Shown here: piece by piece, positions 5,069 to 39,504 of the stretch
Layout of the letters: each line of letters opens with the position of its first letter
Position numbering within the stretch: position 1 is the stretch's first letter
From: Tubiluchus corallicola
Taxonomy: Eukaryota > Animalia > Priapulida
NCBI GenBank assembly: GCA_030141605.1
Contig: JAQGDQ010000548.1
Span: 62,001-126,000 of the forward strand
Direction: 5' to 3'
DNA: 64,000 bases
Notes under the pieces: generated by a model
Databases searched by the model: none
What the model saw: only the letters and a program-made list of their open reading frames with translations
Told to the model about the DNA's origin: nothing
Position numbers and translations under genes: made by a program

Positions 5069-5402
5069 GTCTTAGTGACCGTGGTCATCAAGCGATGGCC
5101 AGGGGCAGGCAATATTAATAAGGTCATCCCTCCAGATACCTTTCTGAAATGATGTCACAGAACTTTTGTAAGACTTGAGAGAATTGAGAGTTAGCAAAGC
5201 ATTTTGCAGTGATCATATGTTTGTGGTCTTCATTGCTATTTTGTGACTAAAAATACACATCTATTGGCATCATCGTTACTTTCAGTCTTTGAAGACTTGA
5301 ACAACCTCATCCCTAACTACACACAAGTGCAAAAATCACAAGTAAAATTATCTAATACAAGCTGATTGTCGAGAAAAACCATTTGGTACTCCTTGTTGAA
5401 CA

Positions 5403-5786
5403 TTATGGACTTCTTGCATCTGTGGTAGATGTAACTTCCGTGGAAGATGTTGGCGGTTCTTCGGTTGTCGTTGATGATGAGGTCCCATCTGACTGATCGG
5501 TCGTTGTGGGTTCCGTTGTTGTTGTTGCCTCTTCTGTGGTCGTTGTGTCGTTGTCTTCATCACGAGACACATCTGGCAACATTCCACCTGACATGGATAA
5601 ATCTGGCGACATTCTCTCCATTTCTGGCGACATGCTCTCCATCTCTGGATCACAGCGCTCTATGCCAAGGTTGGCCATCTCACAGCTACAGCCTTCCGAG
5701 AGCCTGCAGGGAGTTGACAGGGGAACCGGAAATAGCCGACCAAATCTGAAAATCTGGCAAGAGCAAAGATTCGCTCTGGCATACAT
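5403..5786 (-). CDS. Last coding exon of a Cys-rich, Thr-rich (mucin-like) protein
   Basis: Acceptor ttgtttttgtttcag|ATGTATGCC. Encodes CSC..C..CSC..C, MxxMSP repeats and a TTTTEE-rich tail; stop at 5403-5405. Confidence 0.6.
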   Translation of the reverse strand: MYARANLCSCQIFRFGRLFPVPLSTPCRLSEGCSCEMANLGIERCDPEMESMSPEMERMSPDLSMSGGMLPDVSRDEDNDTTTTEEATTTTEPTTTDQSDGTSSSTTTEEPPTSSTEVTSTTDARSP

Positions 5787-6509
5787 CTGAAACAAAAACA
5801 ATTGAACGTTTATTAGTTACCATCCTGCACCGATGGAATTTGAGTAGGTCTGTGATACCAAAATCACCGTGTTTGTTTGATAAAATATTGATAACATTAA
5901 AGAAATTAAAAGCACACGAACTTTCAGTACCCAACTTAGTACTATCTTCAAAGTAAAAGCAATAAAAGAAGAAACAAACGAAGAAATAGAAGAAGAAACC
6001 ACCAAATATTTTTTGTTCTTAATTTCTTTCATCTGAAGATAGTGTCAAGGACGTCAGTTTATGCCATTGTACAATATTTTATAATGATTATGTAGAAAAC
6101 TTCGTATCAGACAGCATAAAAGAAGCAACTTGTAGGAAACCTTTTACCAGACTGCATAAAAGGAAACAACTTGTAGAAAACTATATATCAGACTGCATAA
6201 AAGGAAGAACTTGTAGAAAACTTTATATCAGACTGCATAAAAGAAACAACTTGTAGACAACTTTGAATCTAGCAAGATTGGCAAAGGCGCCTTTTTGTCA
6301 CATGAGTGTGGCCGACAAATAGAAGGCAGTACTGTGATAACCACGATCACGAATTGCAGTGTTAGTTTCTGACGTCATGTGACATAGAGCCCATTTTCGT
6401 GACATCACGCATTTAAGCGTTTAAGATTTGATTTAAAATAAGCTATTGTAATTTTCAATATTTTAGAGCATTCGTGTTTACACTATCATCCGGTTTTCCT
6501 TTAAGTTAC

Positions 6510-6695
6510 CCTTTCACAAATGATTTCTTCTCCTCTTCCTACGTAGCAAGTACAGTCTGTGGAAAAATCCCAATCATTCCTCGGTTCACAGTCATCGCTG
6601 CAGACAATGTCAACATTGTTTCTCTCCAGGCACAACCTTCTCCTCGCTCCTTCGGGTCCTCTGGTCAAGTAGAACAGGTCACCCCAAACTGTTAC
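6510..6695 (-). CDS. Internal exon of the same Cys-rich gene
   Basis: ttacag|GTAACA...GAAAGG|gtaact, phase 0 at both ends. VTVW...CLERNNVDIVCSDDC...CTC...ICER joins in frame to the 5403-5786 exon. Confidence 0.55.
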
Positions 6696-6833
6696 CTGTA
6701 ACGAGTTTTGAAATCTAAAAATTTCTTTTACGCATTTTTGATACATTACGTTTTTTCCATACATTTCGTTGAATCGGGATAAATGACTTTTTACTTCCTA
6801 TGTATGCCAACCTAGGCGATACTAACTACAAGT

Positions 6834-6834
6834 A

Positions 6835-6901
<67 letters not shown>

Positions 6902-7580
6902 TATTTTAAATTATACACATATACAAATATTTACATAATATACATACAGAGACCCTCTATTTGCAGGGTATGGTTAAAAAAACTTTGTAAATAAAATAGC
7001 TGTTACATTCGTGAGACTTTTATATACCAATAAATCACGGATTAGTACCCCATAATAATATAAAAGAACAACTAAAATCAAATAGCATCGGTTTACACAA
7101 AACGACCGGTATAATATAAAAGTGACTAGAAACAGAAAAATTAGATGTCTACAGATTTGTTCTGTTACGCAAAGTTTAATATTTTATACTAAAGTTTGCA
7201 AAAACGGATCACAAGCTAACTCAGTGAAAGCATCTAGCAGGTTTTTGTCACGAGAGGTATAAATTTTACTAATGTTCTGAGATTGTAGGATATTTGCGAG
7301 CGCGAATCTTTTATTTTCATCGACCAGAGTACAATTAAAAAGCAAATGTTCAACTGTTGGTGCTTTCTCAGAACGTATACAGGCATTTATGTATCCAATG
7401 TTAAAAAGAAAATCTTTAAAGTTACCTTGTCCTAGTAAAATGCTACAAGATAGTTTTTCCAGCCTTCTGCTACCTGTATGAAAAGGGTCTAGTGGAGGTA
7501 AAAATATATTTTCAGGAAGAATGGATAACGCCTGGCATTGGTAGCGAGTACGGCACCTAACTACAAGGCAGCATGGTGCA
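6834..7580 (-). mobile_element. 3' fragment of a non-LTR retrotransposon with C-terminal zinc-finger-like motif and (TAA)n tail
   Basis: LLGQGNFKDFLFNIG...C...TVEHLLFNC resembles LINE ORF2 C-termini. A (TAA)n run at about 6836-6902 lies downstream on the minus strand. Confidence 0.55.
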
Positions 7581-7769
7581 ACAAGGCCAAACATTGTATA
7601 TTTTGTCAACAAAGGGAATGGTCGCCTCCTCATTGTCTGAGAATGGCAGCACCCAGAATACATATTTCTGTCCATTGTTGGCCATTGTAACGAACCAGCC
7701 AGCAGAGAAATGTCCCTGTTTCTTGGTCTAAATGTAGCTGCATCTAATTGTGATGGTAAAGTAGCGCGT

Positions 7770-8357
<588 letters not shown>

Positions 8358-9329
8358 GTCTTTCTCTTTCCTTTGTGTTTTCCCTCTAATACCAAAATAC
8401 ATTAATTACACTATTTAACTTGCAAGATAAAAAACAACTAACACATCCAATATCAGAAAATACTAAAACTTAAGCTTGAAATCAATAGCTAAATTTTTAC
8501 ATACCACAAGAACGAGAAAGATTCCCTGTTGCAAACAGAACGACCACATCTTTAACGAACGTGAACGCAATAGTAAATTCAATCGGGCTCAATTAATTGT
8601 TTAAACTGAAAGTGCAAGTTGAATTGGTGGTTAAACCATGTGCACTGTCCGAATCGAGAATTGTGGGTCAGTCGTTCTGTTAGGAGTGGTCTTTCAATTA
8701 GACCGACTGGGGGGGTGGGGGGTGGAGAATACAAGCGGCTTAGCATTGAGATTAAAGAAAGACTATGAAGGTAGTCAATCACACGTATCAAATAGGTAAT
8801 TGTTCTCTTGAAGGTCAAAATGCCAACCGGAAATTGATTCGGAAGCGGAAGCTAATTTAAATGTGCGCTTTATTTTGAGATTAAACGTGCAGAAAAGTGA
8901 CGATTTTAAACTTATTCCTTTCGCTATTCCGTAATTTCTTCCCTCGTTTCTTCGAGCACTTTGCCTTTTAGTTCATTTTTGATTTTATTTCGCTCGTTTG
9001 TTGTTTGCCTGTTCGTTTGCCTGTTCGTTTGCCCATCAAATGTGTAGTCAATGCGAGGTTGTGATATAACTAGTGGCGCCTTCGCGCACGTACATTTTGC
9101 AACTGCTGAGTATTTTAAAGTATTTAAGACATTTAGTATGCATGCAATGCTGATCTGTACAAAGTCGTCTCTAACGTACTGTACCTTGCGCAGTTTTTTA
9201 CGCTATGTAGATTTTTTAGTTTTCCATTTTGTCACCATTTTTAGTCTATTGTTATTGGCTTAAATCAAAATAACTATTAACAGATCAAATAACTGTCAGT
9301 TTTAAAATTTTATTAATTTTAAGGGCAGA

Positions 9330-9375
9330 AAATACTCTCGTATCCCACGGGATACAACGGGTATGAAAGGGTTAA
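9330..9375. mobile_element. Isolated piggyBac-like right end
   Basis: ...tcccacgggatacaacgggtatgaaagggTTAA. No matching left end found. Confidence 0.3.
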
Positions 9376-9547
9376 CAGATTAAGCATTCCAATCCGACAC
9401 GAACTGCACTGAGCAATTATTGATAGTTTGAAAAAAATGTTATATTTTATTGCTGGGGGGTATAAACACGTTGTTGTGTAGCTTGAAAAATCGTTGATTG
9501 GTTCGTGGTCTAGTGCGACTTATTAGTGTACCGGTCGTTGCATGAAT

Positions 9548-9830
9548 GATTGTTGATTGGGTGGTTAGTTGGTTGGTTGGTAAGTTGATTGTTTCGTTGG
9601 TTTGTTGATTGATTGGTTGACTGGTTGGTAGATGGGTTTGTTTGTTGGATTGTTGGTTAGTTTGTTTGGGTATTAGTTGATTGTTAGTTGGCTGGTAGGT
9701 GGGTTGGTTTGTTGGTTAGTTTATTTGTAGACTAATTGATTGTTGGTTGATTTGACTGTTGTTGTTATTGGTTGGTTGGTTGGTAGGTGGGTTGGTTTGC
9801 TGGGTTATTGGTTAGTTTTTTGTAAATTAG
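9548..9830. repeat. Degenerate (GGTT)n-type low-complexity tract
   Basis: Seen directly. Confidence 0.85.
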
Positions 9831-10788
9831 TTTGTTCTCATTTAGTATTTTAAAGAGTAAATTGTTTTGACCTACGCGGTTGAAGAATGGGTTGAGTTTT
9901 CCTTTAACTATGCTCTATCCATCCTTCGCATTTAAGTCTGATACTTTTAAAGCCAACTTTCTTCGTTCAATTGTGTCTGAACAAATTTGGTCGTCAAAGG
10001 GTACAAAAATCTGAATCAAAGGGTTAAAATAACAAAGTACAAAGGGGATTAAATTTACCATCTAGTTAATTTCATACTTTTGAAATTCAATGAAAAACAT
10101 TTTGTCGTGTTTGTTGAAACTTCTGTTATTTTGCCCCATTTAGAGTGCACGAGAGATACGGTCTTGTTTGCAAACAAATACGAGCCTAATTCTCGAACTG
10201 AGAAGCGATTCTGCCATAAACGCTTACAACAGTCAATCCTGGGGTGTAAGGCACTCGCTTATAAGGCACTGTAACAATGTACAGTATCATTTGTGTGAAA
10301 TCGGCTAATGTAGAAAATTTCAACCATCCAAACAAAAACACTCTGATACACTTTGGCCTCTAGTCTACTCTATTTTTAAGGAGAAATTCTTGTGAAAGGT
10401 GAAAGGACCTTAATTTGTTCTTGGCTGATCGGTTGGTTTTGTCTGGATTAGCAGCAGAACACTGCACGGCTTGGGCTGTAGTAAACAGGCTATCAATAAA
10501 ATAGTGTGTACGATTACGCAAGTGTACCCCAGACTAAGCTACTCAATAGGCCAACTTAGAGTGCCTGAAAAGGGTGTTTTTTTCTTAATTTTATCCAATT
10601 AAATCAATTGTAAATGTTTAAACAAATTGCACGATTGGATAGCCGAGATTCTCCTGAATAGAACAGTACCTAAATTGTCATCGCTTAATTATGTCTGTAA
10701 AGTCATAAATCTTATAATACCCATTTTGAATGGTGTGGCCCTGAAGGAATTAAATAACCTTTTTCATCAGATATTTCTTGATAACATT

Positions 10789-14532: not shown

Positions 14533-16664
14533 AAAACACCTAAAAAATGTCATGAGCCTGTAAGTAAACTTGTGTTTTTAATAAGGGGCAGCTGACCAAG
14601 TGACCAATAGGTCTTTCGCTGCTCCTTGTCAGCTGCAATGAAATGTAATAATAATTATGACGAATTTTAACTGCTATTGAGAAAATAAAATTGAATTGAA
14701 TTGAGTGGCATCGCTAGAGCTTGAGGTGCCCGCGGCGGCACTAGCAATGCTCTATAATAATAATAATAATAATAATAATAATTTTTATTTGTTTGCCTTC
14801 CAAATAAATACAACAAAAAACTATAATACCAATATTCAACAATATTAAAAGAAGGGCGGGATGGCAAAAGACCAAAATGGTCATCTAGACATGGTCATCA
14901 ACATGCTAGACACCCTTTAACTTCAATGTCTCTGTTCTTTCTATACTCCTCCTAGATGCTCCGTCCCTAACTAGTGAAACTTCCAATCACTGCATGGCTA
15001 GTATGCATAATTATATAAAAATAAATTATATAAGCATGAAAATAAATATTAAATGGGCAAAGAATTAATTAAGATTAACTAGGTGGCAGGCAATTGTAGA
15101 AAATACAATATCCTTCAATATCATAACAATTTGAACTGGAACATACTATTTTTTCAAGAGTGACTTACGTCAAAGAATTATTACCGCATTTTGCCATTCG
15201 CTAGTTAGATGGGCACAAGTTTTGCGTCTTGGAAATGAGTTGCTCGATAAAAACAGGCTATGGATGTACCTCTCAGTCCAGAAGTGTTCGTTTATGAACA
15301 GGTGCACAAAGAGCTGATTCTTGAGCATGTCACTAAACTTGAAATTTGAATTTTAAACTTCAAATTTGTAGAGTTTTTGTATATCACACCGAATGTTGTA
15401 CGGCAGCACTGTACTTCAATTTCTACTTTTGCAAACAAGCTCATGGAATTTCTGTCTTGTTGAGAATTATGTTCAGTTGTGATGTCGTTGCTGTTTGGGC
15501 TGGCCTGCCATTCATTAAATTTTTAACCGATTATTTAATTATCAGAAAACTTTGACTTAATTATAGGTAATGAAATATATATTTTTACAGTACTTTAGAG
15601 AACAAAAAAAGAGGTATATGAAGTAGGTTTCAGAAAAATCGTCTTAAGAAACTATATTACCATGTAGCAATTTTATGCACATATCTTACTTGCATTAGAA
15701 GGAATTTTTGTTTGTTTTCATTATAATCTCCCGCAATACTGTTCTGACCGCGCCATTACATTACGTCATCTACGCAAACGTGAATCAAGGGAAGAAAGGG
15801 CAATATTAAATTACATCCCAAAAAACTTTCCATGCAAATCTATATCACTTAGCATTTCGCTTACTTACTAGAAAGGCTTATGTAACTAGAAATGATAATT
15901 TAAAATGTTCGTGCCAATTGGTAAAATGTCGCTGACTTGCCCTCCAGGGCGCACCACTCACTAACCAAAAAAACGGATTTTCAATCTTATTGACAAGATA
16001 CACACGTAGCGGTTTTTAGATTGCATCAGGCATTTGACTTTCTACACTTCTGACAGAATCAACTTTTTTAGTCCGTCTGATCAAAGTGCTGCATTTTTAA
16101 AAATGCCGGCCGGGACATCCCGCATTTTAGACCATTTTTCTTACTATTTCCTCAAACAAATTCAATAGCTTAAAAGTCATTATGTCACCTCAAACTTTTG
16201 ACTCTTAATTACACACCAATACACTAGTATACACCCTAGTATAGCATATAATTGCGCACAGCGACATCTTTGCCAAAAATTTCAATTATCACTTGAAGGG
16301 CAAAAATGTTTTTACAGTAAAATCATTAATGCAGAACTTTTTACTCGATATAAGTCATTAAAAGCTACCACTAAACATTCTGAAGCTTATAATCCAGAAA
16401 AAATATTCACTTTGCGTGCTGTAACTGCTATTATGAAAGGGTGGGCCCAGGTCCCTTGGGCCTACCCTCTAAATCTGCCCCCCCCCTAACTATGCCACTG
16501 TGAAATTTGAATTTTTTATTAAGTGAAAAAGTGCTATAGAATTTTCACTGAAGGATTTTTCTTTGTAGGTTTTTCTTTGATACATGGTGGACATTTCACA
16601 CATGACCTGCGCTTGATGAATCATTGCAGCTTAGCTAATCTCTTCATGGATATAGTGAGCAAAA

Positions 16665-18302
16665 GTGATCAAAAGACCATGTTTGTTTGCTAAACTCAAA
16701 TCGACAGATTGTTACGGTAGAACAACTATCGTAAAGAAAGAGTTTTACTCCATGCCAGTGTGCGATGGAAAGATGCATCGCCATGATCATTTATCTACTG
16801 AAAGTATGACGTCGTCCGATGTACATAATCTTGTTGAACCAATAATCAAGATTGAAGATAATAACGTGGGCTGTAATCAGTTTCAAACATGGCAACATGG
16901 CTTACACAACGAAGCTTGCAGTCCGTGCACGAATGTGTCTATTGATATTAAATTGTTAAACAGTCGGACAGAACAGATGCACTTTTGCGACGCATTACAC
17001 TCTAGCAGCTGTCCTGCAACTGGAGATGGCAAAAATGAATCTCGTTTCCAGCACACGCTTTCAACGGAGGGTTACAAAAGAAAGAAAAAGAAAAGAGAGT
17101 TACATGTAGAACCTCGTTGTGGATTACAAGTAGATTTACGTGACAGATGCGATCCATCAGCTACGTCTACTATGCGTAATTCTGAAGGAAGTAATGACAG
17201 ATGTGCAGCTGCTTGCAAAAGTTACGAGGAAGAATTCGCCATTTTGAAGTTTTACGAACAAAATCCTCAGTTGAGTAAAAAAGTCGTAGCACGTAAATTT
17301 GGTATGAAACCTCAGGCGCTAAACGACACCTTGAAAATCAAGGATAGGGTTAAAGAAGAGCCCAAAAAGTTGTGGAATGCAGGAAAAGGTGATGCGGAAC
17401 GATTGAAGATAGTTTCTCACCCCAAACTATGCTCTTTAGCGAATAGGAGCTTGAGAAGGAACATCATGAAGCGTACGGGCAGAACGTACCAGGAAAAATA
17501 TGCCATAATCAAGTTTTACGAGGAAAACCCGCTGCTGAAAAAGAAAGACATCGCGTCCAAATTCGGCGTCAAACCTCAGACGTTAGTCGACGTTTTGAAG
17601 AACAAGGACGCCATCAAGGAAAGAGTTGAAAAGCCGCGCGACGCTAGAAAAGGTGCAATAAAGCGGACTAGAAAAGTTTCGTTCGCGGATGTCGACACGG
17701 CTCTGCTGCTCTGGGTTCAACAGCATTCGGGCTTGTACATCAACGGTGATTTACTGTACACGAAAGCAGACCAGCTCTGCAGAAAATTCGGATACCGGAA
17801 AACCGTCTCTCATGGCTGGCTGAGCCGCTTTAAAGAGCGTCACGGTATGGCAAAACCTCGAAAGACATCTAGACCCGAGTCTGTTGTTGACCATTCAAAG
17901 AAAACTGACCGACTTGAGTTGGTTTGTGACGGGTCAAACAATGAAGTTTCCGACGAATCAAAGAACAAATTTTGCCCTTCGTTAAGCGATGAAGTTTGCG
18001 ATTGTGATTACTCGAAACTGGAATTTTTTAACGAATCAGCTAGTCGTGCATGCGATGAGTCGAATGGTGCCATTTGCAATAACGCAGACGTAAAGATATG
18101 TGGTGTTGCAGAAGATGAGCATGATACCACTATGGTAAATCCACCTTCTGTTAAACAGGTTAAACAAAGTTTGAACGTTTTGCGCCAGTACGCTTTGTGC
18201 AGGGCAAACGCTCAATTCACTGAATACGTGATGCAATTTTCTCATCGTTATGATGAGTTTATAAAATGTCGATTTGGTGGAAGCAATGCAAGTTCAAATT
18301 AA
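16665..18302 (+). CDS. pogo/Tigger/CENP-B-derived DNA-binding protein (two psq-type HTH plus CENP-B HTH, no DDE domain)
   Basis: Two repeats, YEEEFAILKFYEQNP..VARKFGMKPQALNDTLK and YQEKYAIIKFYEENP..IASKFGVKPQTLVDVLK; then DVDTALLLW...SHGWLSRFKERHG. C-terminal PSVKQVKQSLNVLRQY helix. First ATG at 16752; acceptor ttctttgtag at about 16569; no TIRs seen. Confidence 0.8.
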   Translation: MIKRPCLFAKLKSTDCYGRTTIVKKEFYSMPVCDGKMHRHDHLSTESMTSSDVHNLVEPIIKIEDNNVGCNQFQTWQHGLHNEACSPCTNVSIDIKLLNSRTEQMHFCDALHSSSCPATGDGKNESRFQHTLSTEGYKRKKKKRELHVEPRCGLQVDLRDRCDPSATSTMRNSEGSNDRCAAACKSYEEEFAILKFYEQNPQLSKKVVARKFGMKPQALNDTLKIKDRVKEEPKKLWNAGKGDAERLKIVSHPKLCSLANRSLRRNIMKRTGRTYQEKYAIIKFYEENPLLKKKDIASKFGVKPQTLVDVLKNKDAIKERVEKPRDARKGAIKRTRKVSFADVDTALLLWVQQHSGLYINGDLLYTKADQLCRKFGYRKTVSHGWLSRFKERHGMAKPRKTSRPESVVDHSKKTDRLELVCDGSNNEVSDESKNKFCPSLSDEVCDCDYSKLEFFNESASRACDESNGAICNNADVKICGVAEDEHDTTMVNPPSVKQVKQSLNVLRQYALCRANAQFTEYVMQFSHRYDEFIKCRFGGSNASSN

Positions 18303-22747: not shown

Positions 22748-23085
22748 ATATAAGAGTTACAAATTAAATGAATAGCATTTAGAATCAATTAATCCTGACC
22801 ATAATCTTAACCCTAATCCATTTCACTAACTAATTTCGTTTGTGTGATAATTGTGAACTCATAGCATAGCCATTAAACGATTACCTAATAGGCCATGTAT
22901 ATGTACTGGGAAACTGCAGCACCCCCAATTTTAATGCATGTGTGATTTTAAAATGGTTTAAAATTTGTTTAAAATTATGGTTTTGTGGTGAGTCAATCTC
23001 ATTTTAACGGCCTTTGCTTATTTAGAGGTGCTGCTTAGACAGAAGAGGACCAACTTGACCTCGTAGCAAATCTTCTGCATTAATC

Positions 23086-24684
23086 ATGGCGGACGAAGAT
23101 GAAATTGACTGTGCGCTTGTTAAAAGTGAGCCAGCTGACAATATAGTCAGTTGGGGTGAATCTGCAGATTATAGAGATACCTCATGTTTGACACATAGAG
23201 AGCTGCCCATTCGTGATGCAGCAATAGATAAGCAGTTAAAGTCTTATGTCTGTTGCACGGCGCCATCTGTAGCGGTGGAGAATGTTAATAATGATGATAG
23301 TGAGAGCGGGTCAAGTTTGATGCAGACCAGTATAAGAGACAGAAAAACATTTGCTCCGAACAATGTTGTCAAAGATGAACCTGTACTTATCATCGAGAAT
23401 TGTCACGTTAATGCTAAGGAACATGATTCGGAGCGACATTATACGATAGAACCTTTTTCAACACCAGTGGCAGCTTCTGTCAAAACAAAAGAAAGAAATT
23501 TTGCAGGAAAGGATGTAAATTATTTGCCAGTTCCTGGACAGCCCTTAGCACTTGACACTTCATCCACAAACCAAAACGAAGCTGAAATAATGATCTCTGG
23601 GATGCTTCCCCAATGTTATGAGGAAAAGATAGGAACAATGGAGAAAGTTAAGTGCGCCGAGTGTGAAGCAACCTTTTCTTCTTCACATACATTGAACAAA
23701 CACGTAAAAACTCACACTAAACGTAAACCATTTAAATGCAGCGAATGTCATGCATCCTTTGGATACAAATCAACTCTAAAAGTTCATCAACGAATTCACA
23801 CTGGTGAAAAACCATTTAAGTGTTCTGAATGCGAGGCACGTTTTGTTGATTCATCTTCATTAACCAAACATTTTAGAACCCATACTGGAGAGAAACCATA
23901 CAAGTGTAGTGAATGTGAAGCATGTTTTGCACATAACTTTAATTTTAAAATTCATTTGAAAGCTCACACTGGTGAAAAACCATTTACGTGCAATCAATGT
24001 GATGCAGCTTTTGGCAACAGACAAGGTTTGAGGAAGCACAGAATTAGTCATCAGGACAAACGACCATATAAGTGCCTCATGTGTCCTAAGACTTTTAAGC
24101 ATTATAGTTCATTAAGGCGTCACAAAATGACTCACAATGACGAGAAGCCTTACAAATGTGGTGTATGTGATTCTGCCTTTTTTCACGTATTTCATTTGAG
24201 AAGCCACATGCGAATTCACACTGGTGAAAAACCATTTAAATGCGATCTGTGCAAAGCTAGTTTTAAGTTTAATTCTAATTTAACTAACCATTTGAGAACT
24301 CACACTGGCGAAAAACCATTTAAATGCGTGAATTGTGAAGCAACTTTTACGGATCCATCAGCTCTGCGATATCACAAGTTAACACATCAAGATGAAAAGC
24401 CATTTAAATGTTTTACATGCACCAGAACTTTTAATCATCCAAAGTCTATAAAATACCACACTGATGCTAAAAAGTGTGATGTGTGTTATCTAATGTTCAC
24501 CTGCACATATGAGCTCAAATCACACTTGCTGCTTCATGCCAATACAAACTTATCCCAAATGCCACAGCTGAAGTCACAATTGAACATTTTTGGTGGTGCG
24601 AAGCCATACATATGTGAGAAGTGTGGCATGGCTTTTGGTTTCTCATCTCACCTAAAGTCCCACGAGAAAGTTCATGCAAAGTGA
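23086..24684 (+). CDS. C2H2 zinc-finger protein (tandem array with TGEKPF linkers)
   Basis: About 12 CxxC..HxxxH units and repeated HTGEKP(F/Y)KC. Acidic, low-complexity N-terminus; acceptor ttatttag shortly upstream of the ATG. Confidence 0.93.
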   Translation: MADEDEIDCALVKSEPADNIVSWGESADYRDTSCLTHRELPIRDAAIDKQLKSYVCCTAPSVAVENVNNDDSESGSSLMQTSIRDRKTFAPNNVVKDEPVLIIENCHVNAKEHDSERHYTIEPFSTPVAASVKTKERNFAGKDVNYLPVPGQPLALDTSSTNQNEAEIMISGMLPQCYEEKIGTMEKVKCAECEATFSSSHTLNKHVKTHTKRKPFKCSECHASFGYKSTLKVHQRIHTGEKPFKCSECEARFVDSSSLTKHFRTHTGEKPYKCSECEACFAHNFNFKIHLKAHTGEKPFTCNQCDAAFGNRQGLRKHRISHQDKRPYKCLMCPKTFKHYSSLRRHKMTHNDEKPYKCGVCDSAFFHVFHLRSHMRIHTGEKPFKCDLCKASFKFNSNLTNHLRTHTGEKPFKCVNCEATFTDPSALRYHKLTHQDEKPFKCFTCTRTFNHPKSIKYHTDAKKCDVCYLMFTCTYELKSHLLLHANTNLSQMPQLKSQLNIFGGAKPYICEKCGMAFGFSSHLKSHEKVHAK

Positions 24685-26760: not shown

Positions 26761-28974
26761 TTTAATAAGTCCACAAAAATTCTAATTACCAAAATCATGT
26801 GAAATTAAGAATGGATATCCTTATCTTTAAACAATTAACACGTTCACTTATATTCAGCAAAGTAAAATATTAACTTTTATTAGAGTAAACCAATCAGTTA
26901 ATCGAAATGAACATTGCCATATCAAGAAAAAAAACAAAGCCTATTTCAAAACTATGAACTATGAATTTATTTTCACACCTCAAAATACAATATCAAACAC
27001 ATTAATAAACTTTAAATAAAATAATTTGAGTAGTGCGAGGTGAGTGTACGATCATAAGCACTTAAATGAAAAAATGATAATAGTTATGCATGCTTCTGTA
27101 GATAACTTAATGTAAATAAGGATGAATTAAATGATGTAATAATAGCAATGGTATAAGAGCAATAAACCTGAAAGTTGAGAAAGGAAACCATAATATGTAA
27201 TTACGACTTTGAGTGAACCTTAGAGTGAATTTTTTTTAAATAGTTACGGATATTAATTATGTGATTGTCTGTCAATGTACCACTTACTTGTATTAAAATG
27301 CACCATATTGCTTACTCGTATATACAATGAAATACATATATACACATATATATATTCAAATTTAAGTGGGGGAGAAGACATTAAATTATAAATTATACTT
27401 GTAGTAATAACTATAATTGTATAGAACATTAAATATAATTGATGGTAGTAATGTAGCCATCATAACCATTAAAGATGGGCTATGGGGAGGGAGGGGGGCA
27501 TATTATAAAAATATTAGTGATTCATTCTCAAAATGCATTAAAAAAAATTCACTTGCCTAGTCTCCTGCCCTTTCTTATAAATAGATTAGTCTATTAAAAA
27601 TTAACGGTGATGCTGCAGATAGACATAGACGTGACACTGGATGCAATTATTGTTAATTACTTAAATAAACTAATCAAAATAAAGCAATGACAAAAGCAAA
27701 AATATAAAAACAAACATAACAACAATAGCATAAGTGAAAAAAAGAATAATAATAAATGAAGATGATGAATAAGTATCAATAATTAGTTACGAATTAAATA
27801 AAATTATAATAATGCACAGTTGTTTACAAAATGCTCGGCAAGAAAAAATAATGTGAATATGATTATATAACAGAAAACAAGAAACGTAAAAGCAAAGCAG
27901 AGCAGTTAATTTATGTCAAGATGTAAGATTACGGCGCAATCAATCGCGTCTCGGAGCTGTTACTTTGTGACATTTGGAAATCAGTTAGGTCGATTGCACG
28001 AACTCAGTACTCAGCTCTAGATTATGTCTTTAGAATTTCCTCCATTAACAGGTACATCCGTAACTTTCATCGCACGCTCAAAACATCTGCCAAAGAACTT
28101 CTTGCTGTCCTCGAGTGGACCCGCCATCTGTCCTCTCATTAGACAGACACGGTAATTTGCTAGTTTCTCTGGACATTCACTACTGTAACAGAAATAACCA
28201 GAAGTATCGTAAGTTCAGTACAGATTATTATAGTTTTTACTGTCCTATAGCCCACGTGTTTATTGACGTGGTATGTGGCCTCAAATACGAAATAAACCAT
28301 GTATGGCACAGGGCACATCTGATGGATGCTAGAATGGTTATATCATTTCAAATCAGCAACAAAAATTGTATAGAACCAGTTAAACTCTTTGGAGTTTTAG
28401 CACCTCATCCCTCGCCCTCTCTCCATTTTTTTCTGCCATCCGCAAAAAATGTGATCTAATTAACTGAAAGGAAGTATTTGCCAAATAATGAGTCAGAGCA
28501 ATGAAATTAATTTGAACTGTTTATAATTATAACTATTATAAGAAAGGTGATCAATATCTGAAATGTCTAATGATTGCAGAATTTTATTTAAGTAGTAGAA
28601 TAAATAGCCCTTCACAAATTTAATGTCAGGCCTCAACCATAAACAGTGCTCTCTCTCTAGCCGAATGAAGTAAGTGATTTTTGTAAATCTAAGTTTATTA
28701 ATTGGACAGCAATTTTCTGAGTGATTTTTTTGTTCAAATTACATTACTGCAAATTTTGTATTTTTTGTTTTTTCTCCTTGTTTAGAATTTAAAGACTGCA
28801 GAAACACCTTATGCAAAGAACTTTTGTGTTTGCTGTGTTAACAATAACAGTATTCAATTTCATACTTAATTCACTTGGATCATTAAAAAGGAAAAAATGC
28901 CAAATAAATGCTACTGCATATGACTTATATTTACAGGTAATAGCTGAAGTGCTTTTGGAATTTACTCAATATGA

Positions 28975-29950
28975 GAGTGATAAAATGCTCTGGAACTTTT
29001 TGAGTGAACATTGTTGTACACTCATCCTTCTTTTAGAGTGATAAAATGCTCTGGAACTTTTTGAGTGAACATTGTTGTACATTCATCCTTCTTTTAGAGT
29101 GAACATTGTTGTACACTCATCCTTCTTTTAGAGTGATAAAATGCCCTGGAACTTGTTGAGTGAACATTGTTGTACATTCATTCTTCTTTTAGAGTGATAA
29201 AATGCTCTAGAACTTGTTGAGTGAACATTGTTGTACATACATCCTTCTTTTAGAGTGATAAAATGCCCTGGAACTTGTTGAGTGAACATTGTTGTACATT
29301 CATTCTTCTTTTAGAGTGATAAAATGCTCTAGAACTTGTTGAGTGAACATTGTTGTACATACATCCTTCTTTCAGAGTGATAAAATGCTCTGGAACTTGT
29401 TGAGTGAACATTGTTGTACATTCTTCCTTCTTTTAGAGTGATAAAATGCTCTGGAACTTGTTGAGTGAACATTGTTGTACATTCATCCTTCTTTTAGAGT
29501 GATAAAATGCCCTGGAACTTGTTGAGTGAACATTGTTGTATATTCATTCTTCTTTTAGAGTGATAAAATGCCCTGGAACTTGTTGAGTGAACATTGTTGT
29601 TCAATCATCCTTCTTTTAGAGTGATAAAATGCTCTGGAACTTGTTGAGTGAACATTGTTGTACATTCATCCTTCTTTTAGAGTGATAAAATGTCCTGGAA
29701 CTTGTTGAGTGAACATTGTTGTACATTCATCCTTCTTTTAGAGTGATAAAATGCCCTGGAACTTGTTGAGTGAACATTGTTGTACATTCATCCTTCTTTT
29801 AGAGTGAACATTGTTGTACATTCATCCTTTTAGAGTGATAAAATGCTCTGGAACTTGCTGAGTGAACATTGTTGCACATTCTTCCTTCTTTTAGAGTGAT
29901 AAAATGCTCTGGAACTTGTCGAGTGAACATTGTTGTTCAATCATCCTTCT
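28975..29950. repeat. 61-bp tandem repeat, about 16 copies
   Basis: Unit gagtgataaaatgctctggaacttgttgagtgaacattgttgtacattcatccttctttta; first starts at 28975 and 29036. Confidence 0.95.
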
Positions 29951-31893
29951 TTATCACCACTTGCGTCAAAATGCCAAATGATTGCAAAGGTCAGGCTTAA
30001 TAGGCACGTTTTCCTTTAAGAAGGTGAGGCCATGCTGGTCACCATAAATTTTCCATAAGCATCTTTCCAACAACATTGCTTCTGTTTTGTTATGTCTGTA
30101 GGGTAGACGATCGATATATTGGCCTCAACGTCCTGCTTAGGAGCTCAACTTTCCCACACGAACGTCTCGTAAAAGGCATTGTTCATACAGTACTAGTGGA
30201 AGATGTTTTCTCGGGCGACGGAGTTTCCACATCCAAAACGAAGCTGGAAAGTGGCTTTTGTCTCTGTAAAAAAAGAATAAAAATGACACCTTATGGGCAA
30301 GTGAAAAATGTATGAAGTAACAAACTAAACTAACAATGGGAATGATTGATTGAAATAAACAGTCGGTCAACAAAGATGAAAGTTTGTTGCTGCAACGTGA
30401 TAGTTTTTGTCATACCTTAGCTGCCCACCAATGCTTTTTCTGCCTTTAATGTGAAAATTGTGGACCTCAATCCAACCGTGTCTGTTGCCCAGGGCTTACC
30501 TAAAGTATTGTACAACCAAGGTTTACCATTGTTGATAAATGAAACTTCTACAGCAAAATAATAATAACAGTATTGCAGGAATACTAAAATCGCAGATCAT
30601 AGGCACAATTATGTAGATTCCAAGGTTCCTGATGGGTAGCAAGTGTTTTCAGGGGTGAATACTAGCAGTAAGAGATAAGGATGTGCTATTGTTGATGGAA
30701 ATGATGCTGAATTTGGATTTTTGTTACCATGTGTATATTTCATTTGCATTATTGTTGATAATCGGTTTTACAGAGTCTGCTAAAACCCTTTTGGGCTGCC
30801 TTCATCGGAGACTAGTGTGGTGGGATTAATGTGAGCAAGGATTCATTTCATGTGAAATACGAGCAGAGTGTAAGTATGTGTCTACAGAGTTGTTTATTTT
30901 GGACAGTAAGTTTGTTTGGAAGGTTCTAGGCTTGTAAAGCAGATGGATTTTTGGAGGCAGAAATGGAAAATGACAGAGACCTTGCCGATGACTCCATGCT
31001 ATAACTAATGCAATAAAATGTCTATTTAAACATTGCTGTTTTACGTAGCAACGATGATTACATAATTACTAGACATTTTAGTGCAAACAAACGTGGAGAG
31101 TTTTTTTTGCCGTTGGAGAAGAATTTTTATTTCTTAAATCAAAGTGAATATTGTGAAACATCTGTTGATGGTCTGTGAGAGACAATAGTTAAATGCACAA
31201 TGTTGTATCGACAACCTTTACGTAGCACCAGCACGACTCAGGAGTGAGGTAATTGCCTCGTCATACTTCTTCACTTAGAGCTCTTGGACAACCCACCCTG
31301 TGAGAGATTCTGAAACTTTCGGAGCATTGGTGGAGTGTTCACATAGTGGTGGAGTCCGCAGTATTCTGGTTATACTATTCGGCGGTAGAGGAGAAGCAGA
31401 GATACGACTATGATTCCAGATTATACTACTTGTGGCGTGTCAGAACTCATGGATCGGCTACATAGTGGAGCATCCTCCTTATTCCAGTGCAGGATCATGG
31501 ATTTGGGACTGTGAACCATCCTTGGTGCACTCTGGAAGAGCCGGCCATCGGGAACGACGTATAAACATGAGTATACTCCTTGCTACTTGTCAAATCTGGG
31601 CCCAGTTCTTGTTCAATAATATACTATATAATTTGCACAGCATCCAGGTGTTTATGTTGTTCTATTTCAAAGTTTGTGAAAACATTTTACGATTAACAAC
31701 TCAATGATTATATTTAATAAAATAATCGAGTCCTATAGGAGAATTGCCCCAACATGAATCCAAACGCTTGGTAATGAAATTTGTAGAAATAATTACCCTG
31801 ACGTGTAACTAAATTTAGATTTGAGACTTTGATACTAAATTACCCTAGATCAATTATAATATATTAGCTTTAATACCACAAACTACCACATAG

Positions 31894-33430
31894 ATGGAAT
31901 TACAATGTGTATCTATTGGTCTCGAAGAGGCCAAAAGACCATTGAAATTCCATCTTTCTGAAGGAAGAGTCACTCAAGTAATTAAATTTGAGTATCTAAT
32001 CCCTTTTAACAACATTGTAACTGCTAGATCAGACGCCGGATGGCCAGCTCAAGCCGTGAATGCTAGAACTAGTAACGATGAAATATGCTCTACTGGAGAG
32101 ATTGGGCGAGGCTGGGGCAATTGCTGCTTCCTGTTTGGAACAGGTTTGACACAAACATGTCTATTGCCAACAACGGTGTCTAGATCAGCACTAGAATATG
32201 CCTGGATCTTCTGAATACATGACATGGAGATGACAGCAGCATTTACTGTAGGAACCAATCATGATAAAGGAGATACTAGATCCATGGGCAAAATATCACA
32301 GAATGGGGAAGACAAGATGGTGCTATGTACTAGAGTAGGAAATGGTAATTGGAAGCATAATGATACAGAGTGTGAGGTGGCAGAAGGCCAGAAAATAGTT
32401 ATGCATAAAGGAAAAACTAGCACTATCATTACCTTAACAGGACTAGCAAGAATGGTAGTTGATTGCGATGTAAAGGAACACGACTCACATAATAATGTAT
32501 ACCTTATAGTGTACGAAAAAGAAGAAGCCACAGGGGGACTGGACAGATAAGGGTAAGGTAGATGGTCCAGCAACAACATTGGATCTGCCATATGTCACAG
32601 AATTAGGTGGAAAGCTGCACTATGCAGAAAGACTGATAAAATGGGGAGAAGTTGATATTAATTCCATTCACTATTGGATAAGAGAAGTGAGCGGGAGAGA
32701 ATTAAACCATAAGCTGAAGACTAATGGAAGAGTAAAACTGGAGGCATTGCATGTATCAGTAACGATGGTATGCAGACTAGGCATCAAGCCAGTTAAATTA
32801 AATTTGGCCACAGTGAATGAAAGTGATAAGGATGAACCAATTAGGATAAGTACATATTTGAAAGAGGATTGTACTTTAGTGGTAACATCAACAACTTGTC
32901 ATGTTTCTCCTCAAACAGTAACTTACTCATCCATAAATACAATTGAGAAAATCATTAAGGTTGGCTGTCCAACATCAACCGGAAAGGTATGTGTTGGAAC
33001 AAATTGTGTTAAGGTAGGTACTGATAAAATGTGGTTAAATTGGGCTTCACATTATGTAGAATCATGGAGACGCTATTCTACGGCAGTGACACAGGATCCT
33101 ACAGCTGGACTTGGTGCTTTTGGAGGAGGATTAGTTAAAGGAATGAAAAGAACAGTCAGTGATATACTCAAAAGTATAGGATTTGATAGTTCTTTTAAGA
33201 ATAGGATTAATAGTAGTAGGCTACTTTGTGTGCACTAGAATGTAGAATGATAAAGGAGCCATGCTAGGTATAGGGCTAATGGTACTTGGAGTGACGAGTT
33301 TTATACCAGGAGTAATGACTCAATCTGTTGAGTTCAACAAAGAGGTTCAAAAACAACTGGATACTCTTTGGGAAGAACTTAAGAAAAAAGATGAAGCCAT
33401 AAAAAGTAGGGATGATTTGTTGTATGATGG
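31894..33430 (+). pseudogene. Endogenous viral element 1: flavivirus-like envelope (E) glycoprotein, degraded
   Basis: Fusion loop ICSTGEIGRGWGNCCFLFGTGLTQTC (core 32104-32145) vs flavivirus DRGWGNGCGLFGKG. LTGLARMVVDC vs LTGYGTVTMEC; DLPY..ERLIKW vs DLPLPW..ETLVTF; stem GAFGGGLVKGMKRTV vs FGSLGGVFTSIGK; two TM helices at 33183-33320. In-frame stops at 32212 and 33243; frameshifts near 32550 and 33185. Confidence 0.88.
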
Positions 33431-33899
33431 TGTATTGATGTGTTGTATGATGAGGGCATTTCCTGATGGTGTACGACCTGGAGGACTTGGTTTTGTTCCA
33501 CCACCTCTGGAGCATGCAATCTACCGGAATTTAGAAGACTTTGGCTGACGACATCTTGCCGCTTGCACTAAATAGACGACGTTAGTAAAGTTTTTTTTAT
33601 AATTATTAAATGTCAACCGTAATTAAGAATTAACATTAACACTTTCATGTAATTATACAATTAGTCTTTTTCAGCCACTCTAGGTTCTACTGCACAGACT
33701 GGTTGGTGCTTGGAATCTGAAAATCAGTGCTGAATATTTCAGTCGAAGCATCTGTAATATTTTTCATAATGAAATCACCTCTTTTGTTGTCTTAATTTTT
33801 CGTACGGAGGTCTTAGATGATTTGAAATATAATCTTGAGATGTTAGTTATGGAACAGAATAGAAATGTTTAGCGTGAAAGATCTTACTACTCGGTCTAA

Positions 33900-35150: not shown

Positions 35151-35230
35151 TCAATCATGTCATCATTGAGTATGTGTAGTGCTCTATTATATTATAACTC
35201 TGTATTATAAATTATACTTGATATATATAA

Positions 35231-36261
35231 TTGATGACAATGACAGCAGTACTAACGAGGCAGATGACGCTGAATATAGCTCGGTCAAAGAAATGAAAGC
35301 ATTAGCTGTAAATTTAACCAAGAAGTCAAAAGATGTTGAAAAACTAAGGATAGTCATAAATGTTATGAGAGGACATGACAATTCGCAGCAAATATTAGAA
35401 AAACTGGAAACAGTTAACAACTTGGTTGTAAACCTAGACAAAAAGATGTCACAAATAATATCAGGCCAAATTGGCAAACCTTTATATAGCAATGCAGTCA
35501 GAAAAAACCTGCCAAGGTCATTCTCTGAAACAGCCAAGACAAGTAACACTTCAAGTAACTCCTCGTCCATATAGGACCCTGATAAAACTGTCATTGTAGA
35601 AAATGTGAGCTAAAAACATCTCGTCAGTTCCAGCATTAACATTAAGAAGAATTTGTGTACACATTTTCCGAGAACGAAATTTGATATTGCCTTCAGAACA
35701 TCCAGAGGGAAAATTCAATTACAAGTCCCAGATAAAACAACAGCAAACGATATGATAAAGAACTGGAAGCCAGAATATATGGGAGGTGGTACTCGCGTAA
35801 GAAAGCCAGTATCTCCGCGTATGAGCGACGCAGAAACACGCGCTGATATTGAAAGATACTATGACATCATCCAGATTGAACGCTGCAAAAGAAAAGACGG
35901 GAAAAACTTGCCATTAGTGAAAGTTACGTTCCAGACAGGAGACGATCTCACAAAAGCAGTCCAGGAAAGCCTACCAATCGGTCAAATGATGTGCTCGGTA
36001 GAAGAGTTTGCTCCTAAGAGAAGACCACTCAGATGTTTTAAGTGCCAGGGGTACAAACACATTGCGAAATGGTGTACTAGAGGCTCCAAATGTGGAAAAT
36101 GCTCAGGAAAGCATGAATCAAACGAGTGTACTTCAGAACAGTTAAAGTGTGCAAACTGTGGCGAATCGCACGCGGCATGGGACAGAAGTTGTGAACTTTA
36201 CGTAAATGAAGCCAAACGACTAAGCAATTACTCACCCTCTTTACCTACATCATTCATATGA
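35231..36261 (+). pseudogene. LINE ORF1 (coiled coil plus three CCHC zinc knuckles), interrupted
   Basis: CFKCQGYKHIAKWC, CGKCSGKHESNEC and CANCGESHAAWDRSC; stops at 35572 and about 35611. Confidence 0.85.
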
Positions 36262-39200
36262 TAACATTCTCATGTCCCGCTTGCGAGAAACCTGTTAAAC
36301 ATAACCAAAAGGCTCTAGGATATGACAACTGTTATAGGTGGATTCACCTAAGATGCTTACCGTTATCTGTTGACGATCATAATGACCTGGCTACAGATGA
36401 TAATGAATGGTTTTGCCATCTTTGTCTACAGTCTATTTTCCCATTTAATAATATACCAGATGACGAAGAATTTAAACATATTGCACGTTTTTCAAATATT
36501 GGTTCTATCTTGTGCGATTATAACTTAAATCTCTTTTGCACTGAATCAGATGATAGCAATAATATCACGAATATGGCACATCCTGATTTAAATTTTTTTA
36601 ATACACCAAACTTAATACCAAAAAGCAATTACTATGATGAAGATCAGTTCACATCTTTGTACAGTAACACTGATTTCAATACACCACTGTCTATGATCCA
36701 TGTTAATATTCGTAGCCTAAAAGCTAATTTTGATTATTTAAATGTATATTTAGAATCATTAACTATAAGTTTTTCAATTATTGCCTTATCAGAAACATGG
36801 CTCCAAGATGATTCAGGAGTAACCATTTTCCTGCCTGGATATGAATTTATAAATCGTAAACACAAATCTGGTGGTGGAGTCGGCTTGCTTATAAGGAAAG
36901 ACATACCTTATACAGTGAGAAAAGACCTATGCCACATCAATGATCCAGACATAGAATCACTCTTCATTGAATTACGCAGCAAGAATAAAAATACAATAAT
37001 GGGAGTAATATATAGACCACCTGGTGAAAATCCTAACCATTTCACAGACAAAATACAGAACACTATGGCAATTGTTAATCGACAAAACAAACATATTTTC
37101 TTACTAGGAGACTATAATATAAATTTAATAAACCACGCTTCTCACAACGAAACCGGACACTTTTTAGACACAATGCTGACCAATTATCTGTTTCCTACTG
37201 TTACAAGACCAACAAGAATTACGCCTTATTCAGCAACACTAATTGATAATATATTTACGAATGCACTAGATTATAAGTATAAATCAGGTATTTTTCTAAC
37301 AGATATAACAGATCACCTCCCAATTTTTTTAATTATTGATCTCAAAATTGAAACATACAGTAAGGAATACGTGCGCAAACATACTTATAATGTTCATATA
37401 AAAAACAAAATTATCCAAGATTTAAATCAATGTGACTGGTTAGATTTATATTCTGCAACTAATACCGAAGACGCATACAATTTATTTCATACTAAGCTTT
37501 CTGATATCTATAACAAACATATTAAACTACAGAAAAGCAATAACAATCATCAAGCAGCAAAAAACCTTGGATTACTACAGCAATTTTAGTAAGGGTTAAG
37601 CGGAAAAATAAAATGTATCGTTCTCTGGTGAACAAGACAAATAATGACGTATCTGAAGTAGAATACAAACGATATAGAAATGAACTTAATACAGTTATAA
37701 AAGCATCAAAATGTCAGTATTATAGGGATAGATTGATGACAGTTAAAGATAACATAAAAAAGACATGGGATACAATGAAAGAAATTATGCATAAAGAAAG
37801 GCAAAATCGACCCATTACGTTGTTCATAAACAATTAATTAAAAATAATGTAGAGGTGGCAAATGCTTTTAACGATTACTTTGCCAATATTGGACCAATAT
37901 TATCAGAACAAATTGAAAACACAAACATAAATCCATGTACATATCTTAAAGGTACCTACCGACAAAGCTTTTTTATTAGTGCAGTAACAGAAAATGATAT
38001 AATAAATACTTGTAAATCGTTTAATCGGAATAAAGGTCCTGGTAAGGACAAAATGTTACCTAAAGTCGTAATAGACACCATTGACTACATCTGTAAACCT
38101 TTGCAATATTTAATTAATTTATCTTTTCTTACAGGTGAAATACCAACGAAATTGAAAGAATCAATTATTGTTCCTTTGTTTAAATCAGATGATCCCATGT
38201 CTCTGAACAATTATAGACCAGTGTCCTTATTGCCTTTTATATCAAAAATATTAGAAAAAGTTTTTTACAATCAGTTATCTCATTATTTAATAAAAAAAGA
38301 ATTCTGAGTAATAAACAATTTGGTTTCAGAAAAGGTAGCTCCACTGAAATAGCCTTAACAAAAATTATAGAAAATATCATTAATACTGTTGAAAACAATG
38401 GCACATCCTACGGAGTATTTTGCGACCTATCAAAAGCATTTGATACAGTAAACCATGACATTCTGCTAAATAAGTTGTACTATTACGGTATCAGAGGTTT
38501 GCCTCATATGTGGCTAAAGAATTATTTAACAGGGCGCACTCAGACAGTAAAATATAATAACGCTTTTTCAGATGTAACACCAATCAAATGTGGCGTGCCC
38601 CAAGGCTCAGTCCTCGGGCCACTACTTTTTTTAATTTATATTAATGACATCAAATTTTGTGTTAAAAATCACAATTTATTTCAGTTTGCTGATGATACAA
38701 GCATTTTTTTTAGCTTTCATAAAATAGAAACCAATAGACTACATAAATACAGTTCTACATGATCTAGCTATATGGTTCAAAACTAATAAACTTTCACTAA
38801 ATTCATCAAAAACAAAATACATTCTGTTTAGATCCCGAAGTAAACCAATCCAGGCGAACCACGATTTAATAATAGACCATAAAAGAATTACACGTGTAAA
38901 AGAACTGAAATTTCTGGGATTAATACTGAATGAGCATCTAGACTGGCGACCACATATTTTCATGATCAGATTAAAAATATCAAAAAATATAGGTATCATT
39001 TCATATATTAAAAACTTTCTGAACACCGACCATCTTCTAACATTATACAACAGTTTAATATTATCATATTTAAATTACTGCACAACATTATGGGGCTTTA
39101 CTTATACTACAAATTTAGAATGCTTAAGAGTTTTACAACGAAAATTTTTACGTGTCATCTTCAAACTAGACAAAAGGAGCACAATTACTACTACACATTT

Positions 39201-39504
39201 TAAGCAATGTCAAATATTACTTCTGGATGATGTCATTAATTTTAATGGATGTATATACATGTATAGAACAAACAACAACTTATTTCCAACTTTTTTTGAA
39301 AATCCAGTCAAGATAAATGTAAAAAAATACAATACCAGACATAATGAATATATACCAAGACGTTGTAGAACAAATATGGCGAAACACTTCATTAGCTATA
39401 TGGGACCAGTCCTATGGAACAGACTAAGCCGCAATTCGAAATGTAGTCACTCCCTTTTAACTTTTAAAAAAACCGTCAGAAAAGAAATATTTCAAAAGTA
39501 TTAA
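36258..39504 (+). pseudogene. LINE ORF2 (PHD-APE endonuclease-RT), frameshifted
   Basis: PHD CPAC...WIHLRC...WFCHLC; APE HVNIRSL, LSETWL, LGDYN, TDHLP; RT NYRPVSLLP, GVPQGSVLGPLLF, FADDT. ATGA overlap with the ORF1 stop. Confidence 0.92.

Follow-up and report, generated by a model that had tools for sequence, protein, structure and literature searches.

What do the broken reading frames in the middle of this piece of priapulid DNA descend from, and how did they come to lie there? The window, i.e., the whole stretch of 64,000 nucleotides of the Tubiluchus corallicola contig JAQGDQ010000548.1 that was analysed, had been described in an earlier note, made from the letters alone, as carrying a decayed EVE of a flavivirus-type envelope (E) glycoprotein from a divergent lineage. 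We call this element EVE 1, and a second one in the same window EVE 2. We asked whether EVE 1 is indeed a remnant of an E gene, whether it belongs to the host genome, which viruses are its relatives, and by which route it could have been inserted.

A broken E gene in host DNA

EVE 1 (31894-33320) encodes the larger part of a flavivirus-type E protein, split into five pieces on the plus strand. It carries four coding lesions, two in-frame stops and two frame changes. Its features are given below, together with the ORFs; L001 is an intact viral relative presented in the next section. The domain names of flavivirus proteins, like the hallmarks of LTRs used further on, are established knowledge.

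31894..32214, plus strand: E piece 1, domain I/II strands and fusion loop, with an in-frame stop at its end
32086-32160, plus strand: fusion loop with flanking cysteines, reading CSTGEIGRGWGNCCFLFGTGLTQTC, the loop itself being quoted as GRGWGNCCFLFGTG
32215..32550, plus strand: E piece 2, domain I/II, with a two-cysteine insertion of ~30 residues; a frame change within 32510-32550
32510..33180, plus strand: E piece 3, remaining domain II/I, then a region rich in cysteines and resembling domain III (~32810-33040), then the stem; a frame change at ~33170-33185
33180..33245, plus strand: first TM helix (33183-33233, hydropathy up to 2.6 over 17 residues), then an in-frame stop
33246..33320, plus strand: second TM helix and likely signalase site, end of E (hydropathy ~2.0, L001-like spacing)
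33321..33480, plus strand: charged stretch after E, without an NS1-type DxGC start
31894-32214, 32215-32550, 32510-33238 and 33246-33548, all plus strand: the four ORFs
32212-32214 (stop), 32510-32550 (frame change), ~33170-33185 (frame change) and 33243-33245 (stop): the four lesions

The four consecutive ORFs reported in the earlier note are all present as described, and the first two share a common frame in which a single stop separates them. The fusion loop stands between the expected cysteines, as had been claimed, and has the pattern GW-x3-C-x2-F/W-G-x-G between conserved cysteines. The motif used for the scan, which was written after the loop had been seen, occurs nowhere else in the window, read in all six frames, and in none of 200 shuffled windows. 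The stem and two C-terminal TM helices are also present: the hydropathy peaks lie at 33183-33233 and 33255-33320, and helices occupy the same place in the structural model of L001. Both helices had been attributed to the four ORFs. They do exist, but the first one, assigned by position and without profile support, lies outside all four, in a separate fifth stretch that is followed by a stop. Hence, there are four lesions, and EVE 1 is more decayed than EVE 2, which has one stop.

At the start of E, ~24 residues are missing (the match to P0002, a relative described below, begins at its residue 220, and the E of P0002 at ~197). EVE 1 also lacks one otherwise near-invariant cysteine of domain II. 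Its right border falls between ~33430 and 33484, since the purine excess drops after ~33440 and repeat-derived contigs begin at 33484; the fourth ORF ends with ~20 codons of host repeat, which starts by 33484. The charged stretch 33321..33480 resembles neither an NS1 profile nor L001; a score of L043 against that profile was set aside as circular. No other 1.6-kb stretch of the window is as purine-rich as EVE 1 (0.595, against 0.58 in the E of L001). The CpG observed/expected ratio of EVE 1 is 0.30, compared with 0.71 in the window, 0.61 in the E of L001 and 0.71-0.91 in insect-specific types, and is uninformative on the viral host because decay after insertion can lower CpG.

Similarity searches point to a flavivirus-type E protein. 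With Pfam PF00869, piece 1 has an E-value of 4.5e-4 and pieces 1 and 2 joined (with an X at the stop) one of 1.1e-5, in both cases below the gathering score of 27; pieces 2-4 taken singly have no Pfam flavivirus match. In a PDB sequence search with the joined pieces 1 and 2, the best 60 of 119 matches (E up to 10) are all flavivirus E chains, the best at 1.7e-5, and a profile of EVE 1 and its relatives matches flavivirus E proteins of the PDB at 8.5e-14. A profile of 39 reference E sequences gives 36.7 bits to piece 1 (best shuffle 3.2) and 13.8 bits to piece 2 (best shuffle 5.6). Piece 3 alone has no flavivirus match in Pfam, PDB or the ESM Atlas, and its identity as E thus comes from the relatives that align there, not from its own library matches. 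It is aligned by tblastn to residues 480-665 of P0007, the polyprotein of L001, colinearly with pieces 1 and 2 at residues 279-476 (joint E 1.3e-16), and has phmmer scores of 35 bits with L001, 26 with P0008 and at most 7 with 60 others. An hhalign comparison of piece 3 with the alignment A4 was discarded as circular, since piece 3 is itself a row of A4. The domain III region scores 13.5 bits with an insect-specific-type profile, at the domain III of the latter (0/100 shuffles), and 0.4 with the vector-borne type.

A single-sequence AlphaFold fold of pieces 1 and 2 has a pLDDT of 31.6. The model of the L001 E protein has a mean pLDDT of 70, with domains I/II mostly at 70-94, confident membrane helices and values below 50 at residues 325-384 (domain III). 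As its input was a 40-row alignment including 33 reference flavivirus E rows, this model is pulled towards the flavivirus E fold. Foldseek places flavivirus E first for it, both in the PDB (4.3e-16, TM 0.33-0.38) and in BFVD, and bunyavirus-type glycoproteins lower. By proxy of this colinear model, EVE 1 is predicted to have the domain I/II beta fold. The best matches are flavivirid E proteins and the predicted fold of L001 matches flavivirus E; the reading of EVE 1 as a decayed flavivirus-type E gene from a divergent lineage therefore stands, given the E homology, the four lesions and a place in the tree outside the reference types (see below).

To which genome does this gene belong? Four of the six sequencing runs contain the stretch. 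They come from two studies: runs X1 and X2 represent one sample, from which the assembly may have been made, and run X3 a second sample and study. Run X5, a shallow one that can show neither presence nor absence, covers neither EVE 1 nor the unique flank. Contigs of the three runs span the core of EVE 1, including both frame changes, with 1-6 substitutions and no gaps, and contigs of run X2 (31847-33593) join it to the host flanks. In X1, the core is covered at a depth of 170-183 and the unique flank at 179, which is the single-copy level, though depth gives no exact copy number. EVE 1 sits in host DNA, is joined to host flanks and shows coding decay, i.e., it is a non-retroviral EVE. The whole polyprotein P0007 matches the window solely at EVE 1, colinearly, and NS3, NS5 or RdRp were not found among 150 of the 172 complex ORFs of at least 65 aa in the window. 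In run X3 only, the depth is 440-2080 over 32505-32945 and 54-146 elsewhere in EVE 1, from either amplification bias or extra copies.

The window is rich in transposon relics. It contains a decayed LINE at 35170-39504 (zinc-knuckle ORF1 and PHD-endonuclease-RT ORF2), a CENP-B/Tc5 HTH ORF (16659-18302), an intact-looking Tc1/mariner-type transposase (51384-52517), a 61-base tandem array of ~13 copies (28935-29939) and a long (AG)n tract (7184-8418). A single-exon C2H2 zinc-finger ORF lies at 23059-24684, and a C6orf201-like (DUF4523) ORF, whose nearest Atlas clusters are chordate and cnidarian and which thereby marks the host as an animal, at 206-895. A weak match at 62551-62754 (E 0.2) was rejected as a low-complexity ORF.

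Relatives and placement of the donor virus

We searched for relatives by phmmer over 1.84 billion protein representatives and obtained six matches, of which five are E-like; the remaining one, P0003, a Staphylococcus repeat protein, was discarded as spurious. The closest is P0002, a fragment of a prM-E encoded by a Logan contig of 2387 bases, with 49% identity to EVE 1 (E 1e-35) and 54% to piece 1. The identity to EVE 1 is 28-29% for P0004, P0005 and P0006, and 22% for P0007. P0004 is part of a cluster of six near-identical E fragments (with P0008-P0012) that have a degenerate loop and are spread over four long contigs of ENA, 34-942 kb in size, with three members on contigs of one length; P0006 is on a 250-kb contig. 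The members of this cluster and P0006 are likely further EVEs, possibly amplified. Scans of viral contigs with piece 1, P0008 or the alignment A2 gave no confirmed relative. Word-indexed searches of proteins of up to 2000 aa returned nothing for the joined pieces 1 and 2, EVE 2 or the alignment A1, which are weak negatives.

P0007 is the sole ORF of L001, a 9691-base IMG/VR viral contig. It is an intact polyprotein of 3101 aa with the domains Flavi_DEAD, FtsJ and Flavi_NS5 (NS3, methyltransferase and NS5). The ORF is closed upstream by a stop and has a hydrophobic segment from residue 4. The net charge of its first 100 residues is +4, compared with +11 to +27 in 38 references (one further row began at an internal Met). 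A DxGC after E, present in 37 of the 40 genomes examined, occurs neither in L001 nor in EVE 1. These traits of one genome suggest a virus without a conventional capsid or NS1; the silence of Pfam on the two proteins is uninformative because a tamana-like control is equally silent. The open-access literature searched contained nothing on point about capsid-less flavi-like viruses. L001 also has 40-base complementary arms near both ends (149-188 and 9487-9526).

After the fusion loop, EVE 1, L001, P0005 and P0008 have in common the two-cysteine insertion of ~30 residues, which the alignment and the cysteine spacing indicate to be absent from reference E proteins. On this sequence comparison, the shared insertion is a tie of EVE 1 to these three that does not depend on any tree. 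The reference E proteins came from two IMG/VR motif scans (at least 120 stretches each, of an estimated 180 and 210), with type labels given by loop motif and tree. In a set of 64 sequences, the five relatives score 140, 92, 66, 45 and 42 bits against pieces 1 and 2, compared with at most 28.4 bits for vector-borne/NKV E proteins, 24.8 and 17.0 for tamana-like ones and at most 19.7 for insect-specific ones.

Phylogenetic trees of E gave the same grouping, with the reservation that long branches meet in them and that the relatives were recovered with EVE 1 as query. EVE 1 and the five relatives are together in a 61-row tree (98/97), outside 42 vector-borne/NKV-type, 11 insect-specific-type and two tamana-like rows, and again in a 22-row tree (95/88). 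In the larger tree, four near-duplicates were dropped and P0008 stands for the cluster of six. The insect-specific clade is recovered at 100/99 without EVE 1; in an AU test, EVE 1 and the insect-specific rows as one side of a branch were not rejected (p 0.081). The two tamana-like rows group with the orthoflaviviruses, apart from EVE 1.

The phenylalanine after the loop cysteine had been taken as a pointer to insect-specific flaviviruses, and this is not supported. The loop of the Rana tamanavirus (PMC10770923) is DRGWTTGCFIFGKGGV, with CF[LI]FG as in EVE 1, and the same CF[LI]FG loop is found in the tamana-like contigs L043 and L103 and in P0002. Since it is common to tamanaviruses, this residue is no marker of insect viruses; the low scores with insect-specific E proteins and the tree, which keeps EVE 1 outside of them, also speak against the pointer. 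On the other side stand the AU result above and the domain III region, which scores with the insect-specific-type profile and not with the vector-borne one. The earlier suggestion of a divergent, possibly unsampled lineage was correct as to divergence but not as to sampling, since unnamed relatives exist, one of them 49% identical. The donor lineage appears to be undescribed, as judged within the literature searched and a reference set without named members of lineages Ia and Id-Ij (PMC11760431) and X2 (PMC9752770). A search of open-access articles for endogenous flavivirus glycoproteins of lophotrochozoans gave nothing on point.

L001, with ~20% identity and a long branch, is the one relative that ties this E family to an RdRp. 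The RdRp of L001 has 23-32% identity to all 17 others tested, and 23-28% to the 11 ortho/insect-specific rows, outside of which it falls. In an 18-row RdRp tree, it groups with five jingmen-like polymerases (100/99), on a long branch. L245 (5312 bases) is an unnamed flavi-like NS3-NS5 contig whose best RdRp match is L001 (31.6%) and which falls outside the orthoflaviviruses.

Insertion and competing explanations

How could a fragment of an RNA virus have reached the germline? The features that bear on this question, at the left end of EVE 1 and in EVE 2, are the following:

~31163..31890, plus strand: multicopy LTR-like repeat (~730 bp, start approximate) with TG...CA ends, TATAAA at 31560 and AATAAA at 31716
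43517..45622, plus strand: EVE 2, with LTR pair, viral fragment and pol end, inside a piggyBac relic (PF13843)
43517-43772 and 45357-45622, plus strand: EVE 2 LTRs, with 4 mismatches in 255 plus a 10-base gap (~98% alike)
43838-44869, plus strand: viral part of EVE 2, with signal, pr, furin site RSKR, M and start of E, and one stop
44872-44959, plus strand: partial LTR copy of 88 bases at the 3' junction of EVE 2
44949-45323, plus strand: BEL/Pao-type pol end of EVE 2 (DUF5641)

The earlier statement that EVE 1 has no visible LTRs is likely wrong. A multicopy repeat with TG...CA ends adjoins its first codon, in the same orientation and with the junction within 3 bases of the CA terminus. The depth of this repeat in X1 is 3,500-10,200, against ~180 in unique DNA, i.e., 20-55x. 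The unique contigs end at 31193 and restart at 31847, bracketing it, and its other copies exit at 31883/31890 into unlike flanks. LTR involvement is likely because such a repeat abuts the 5' end; as no internal retroelement gene is tied to the repeat, an LTR is its presumed identity. The repeat could also be a later neighbour, because no second LTR, target-site duplication or primer-binding site of the EVE 1 insert was found in the window. Searches by tblastn with P0002 and P0007 found no prM or E start upstream of the repeat, and no poly(A) tail was found at the right border.

EVE 2, ~12 kb away and with no DNA similarity found to EVE 1, is a young LTR-virus hybrid in which the anatomy of capture is nearly complete. 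It has a CACGC duplication and, at its 5' junction, a 30-base inverted LTR copy, and its pol runs directly into a purine tract and then the LTR. EVE 2 is at single-copy depth and its LTRs are multicopy; in the remaining copies of the element, the DNA ahead of 44951 is a different one, the viral fragment replacing the interior in that one copy. A run presumed to be RNA had no coverage of EVE 2, which has no bearing on expression. Its prM has 19-22% identity to those of L001, L238 and P0002, with conserved pr cysteines. Judging by these proteins, EVE 2 is from a different virus than EVE 1, of the same broad lineage. In three runs, we observed a joint that skips the entire element, which would stem either from an allele without the insert or from piggyBac copies elsewhere. 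L238 represents a third capture of the LTR type and comes from another host. This JGI contig (L239 is the same locus) has a broken prM-E at 19-2482 between 125-base direct repeats, and after the first of them a stretch starting with TGG, which we take to resemble a tRNA primer-binding site.

We regard it as quite probable that EVE 1 is a broken single-copy E fragment of an unnamed flavi-like lineage, likely inserted in the germline by an LTR retrotransposon that switched template at its LTR. The donor would have been an RNA virus resembling L001. The reverse transcriptase of the retrotransposon would have switched from its own LTR to the viral RNA (copy-choice), and the E fragment would have been inserted behind the LTR-like repeat, in the same orientation. 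EVE 1 would now make no protein and decay, being at most a putative small-RNA template. Copy-choice was proposed for the EVEs of Aedes, with which 543 of the 614 nearest LTRs share the polarity (10.1101/127498). We infer this mechanism for EVE 1; in EVE 2, nearly all of the anatomy can be seen.

Could EVE 1 instead be a decayed env, from a family of LTR retroelements that acquired a flavi-like prM-E long ago? Atlas virus, a nematode belpaovirus, reportedly has an env derived from a phlebovirus-like glycoprotein and would be a precedent for such uptake. All genomic cases with readable DNA, i.e., EVE 1, EVE 2 and L238, adjoin or lie between LTR-type repeats, and both the TGG stretch of L238, as a possible primer-binding site, and the six near-identical members of the P0004 cluster on four long contigs fit an env. 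However, EVE 1 and EVE 2 are single-copy while the LTRs are multicopy, and the viral piece is directly behind the 5' LTR, not behind pol. In the EVE 2 element, pol is followed by the purine tract and the LTR, and other copies are without the viral piece. The three inserts come from different viruses (15-27% identity) and are truncated at different points, and L001 carries the same family on a free RNA-virus genome. The single copy number, a viral piece that follows the 5' LTR, and L001 as a free virus all weaken this explanation, which we consider unlikely. Nothing on point about a flavivirus-type env in retroelements was found in the open-access texts searched.

It is rather improbable, too, that a genuine flavi-like EVE entered through LINE machinery or break repair, with the LTR-like repeat arriving later or becoming adjacent through a deletion that clipped the start of E. 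In its favour, neither paired LTRs nor a target-site duplication were found, and the region, dense in transposon relics, has 2-6 kb downstream of EVE 1 a LINE that encodes endonuclease and RT; yet the junction is at most 3 bases from the CA terminus of the repeat, in the same orientation, tblastn with P0002 and P0007 finds no prM or E start upstream of the repeat, and the right border is without a poly(A) tail. A relic of a host class II fusogen, the glycoprotein of another virus order or a viral contig contaminating the assembly would fit the low identity to named viruses and the absence of Pfam flavivirus matches for pieces 2-4 taken singly. These possibilities are already largely refuted and very improbable: flavivirus E is at the top in every library searched, with bunyavirus-type Gc lower, in two samples contigs from DNA runs connect the core with its left and right flanks, the depth being single-copy, and the stops and frame changes rule out a live virus. 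Capture by an LTR retrotransposon is the likely reading that we retain for EVE 1.

Significance and comparison with known systems

EVE 1 is too divergent for the Pfam cut-off, yet it ties L001 and unnamed proteins to animal germlines. It gives their lineage a host association and a means of dating, and represents a fossil record of a virus group otherwise seen only as anonymous sequence. The hybrid structure of EVE 2 implies that the mosquito-style route of capture likely operates in other animals. With considerable doubt, one may go further and propose that EVE 1, L001, P0002, L238 and EVE 2 belong to an undescribed unsegmented flavi-like clade that is sister to the jingmenviruses and perhaps the living form of the fossil lineage X2. 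Its members might have a prM-E with canonical loop and a signal-peptide start, without conventional capsid or NS1, and LTR retrotransposons might have taken up their prM-E on at least three occasions, in two or more hosts. If L001, its loop and prM being intact, does sit between orthoflaviviruses and jingmenviruses, this bears on when prM arose and on the loss of the loop and the segmentation of jingmenviruses (PMC11410658).

Since flavivirid EVEs of aquatic animals have been published (PMC9752770), EVE 1 is a known kind of fossil; what appears new is the lineage of the donor virus. Screens by similarity to named viruses detected flavivirid EVEs in 36 of 1075 species and, outside mosquitoes, mostly of non-structural genes (PMC9752770). 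Like the Aedes EVEs (EFV-cISF; 10.1101/127498 and PMC9752770), EVE 1 is a truncated, decaying fragment of viral RNA in the germline, with a putative LTR of like polarity beside it; for EVE 2, the adjacent LTR of like polarity is clear. Unlike them, its donor is outside the insect-specific clade. The flavivirus EVEs of Aedes go with Ty3/gypsy elements, whereas EVE 2 is in one of BEL/Pao type.

EVE 1 resembles the orthoflavivirus E protein (PF00869) in its loop with flanking cysteines, in the order of its domains and in having a stem and two TM helices, and its relatives have a prM-like protein before E. It differs by an identity of ~15-20%, the two-cysteine insertion, a cysteine-richer domain III-like region and the absence of DxGC. 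Compared with the genus Orthoflavivirus, L001 has its RdRp outside the clade and no evident basic capsid before prM, and DxGC is absent in both L001 and EVE 1. The E of EVE 1 is not nested in the clade of insect-specific flaviviruses (lineage Ic), though a sister position was not rejected (AU p 0.081). With the tamanavirus and orthoflavi-like lineages (Ia and Id-Ij; PMC11760431), it shares an unsegmented relative of ~10 kb and the CF[LI]FG loop, but tamana-like E rows group with orthoflaviviruses and not with EVE 1. Finally, the RdRp of L001 resembles that of jingmenviruses in its RMSG motif and in joining, on a long branch, five jingmen-like polymerases; its PDB scores are 132 bits with JMTV NSP1, against 133-161 with orthoflavivirus NS5. 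Jingmenviruses are segmented and have an E homologue without fusion loop or prM-like partner (PMC11410658), whereas L001 encodes one polyprotein with both, and EVE 1 has the loop.
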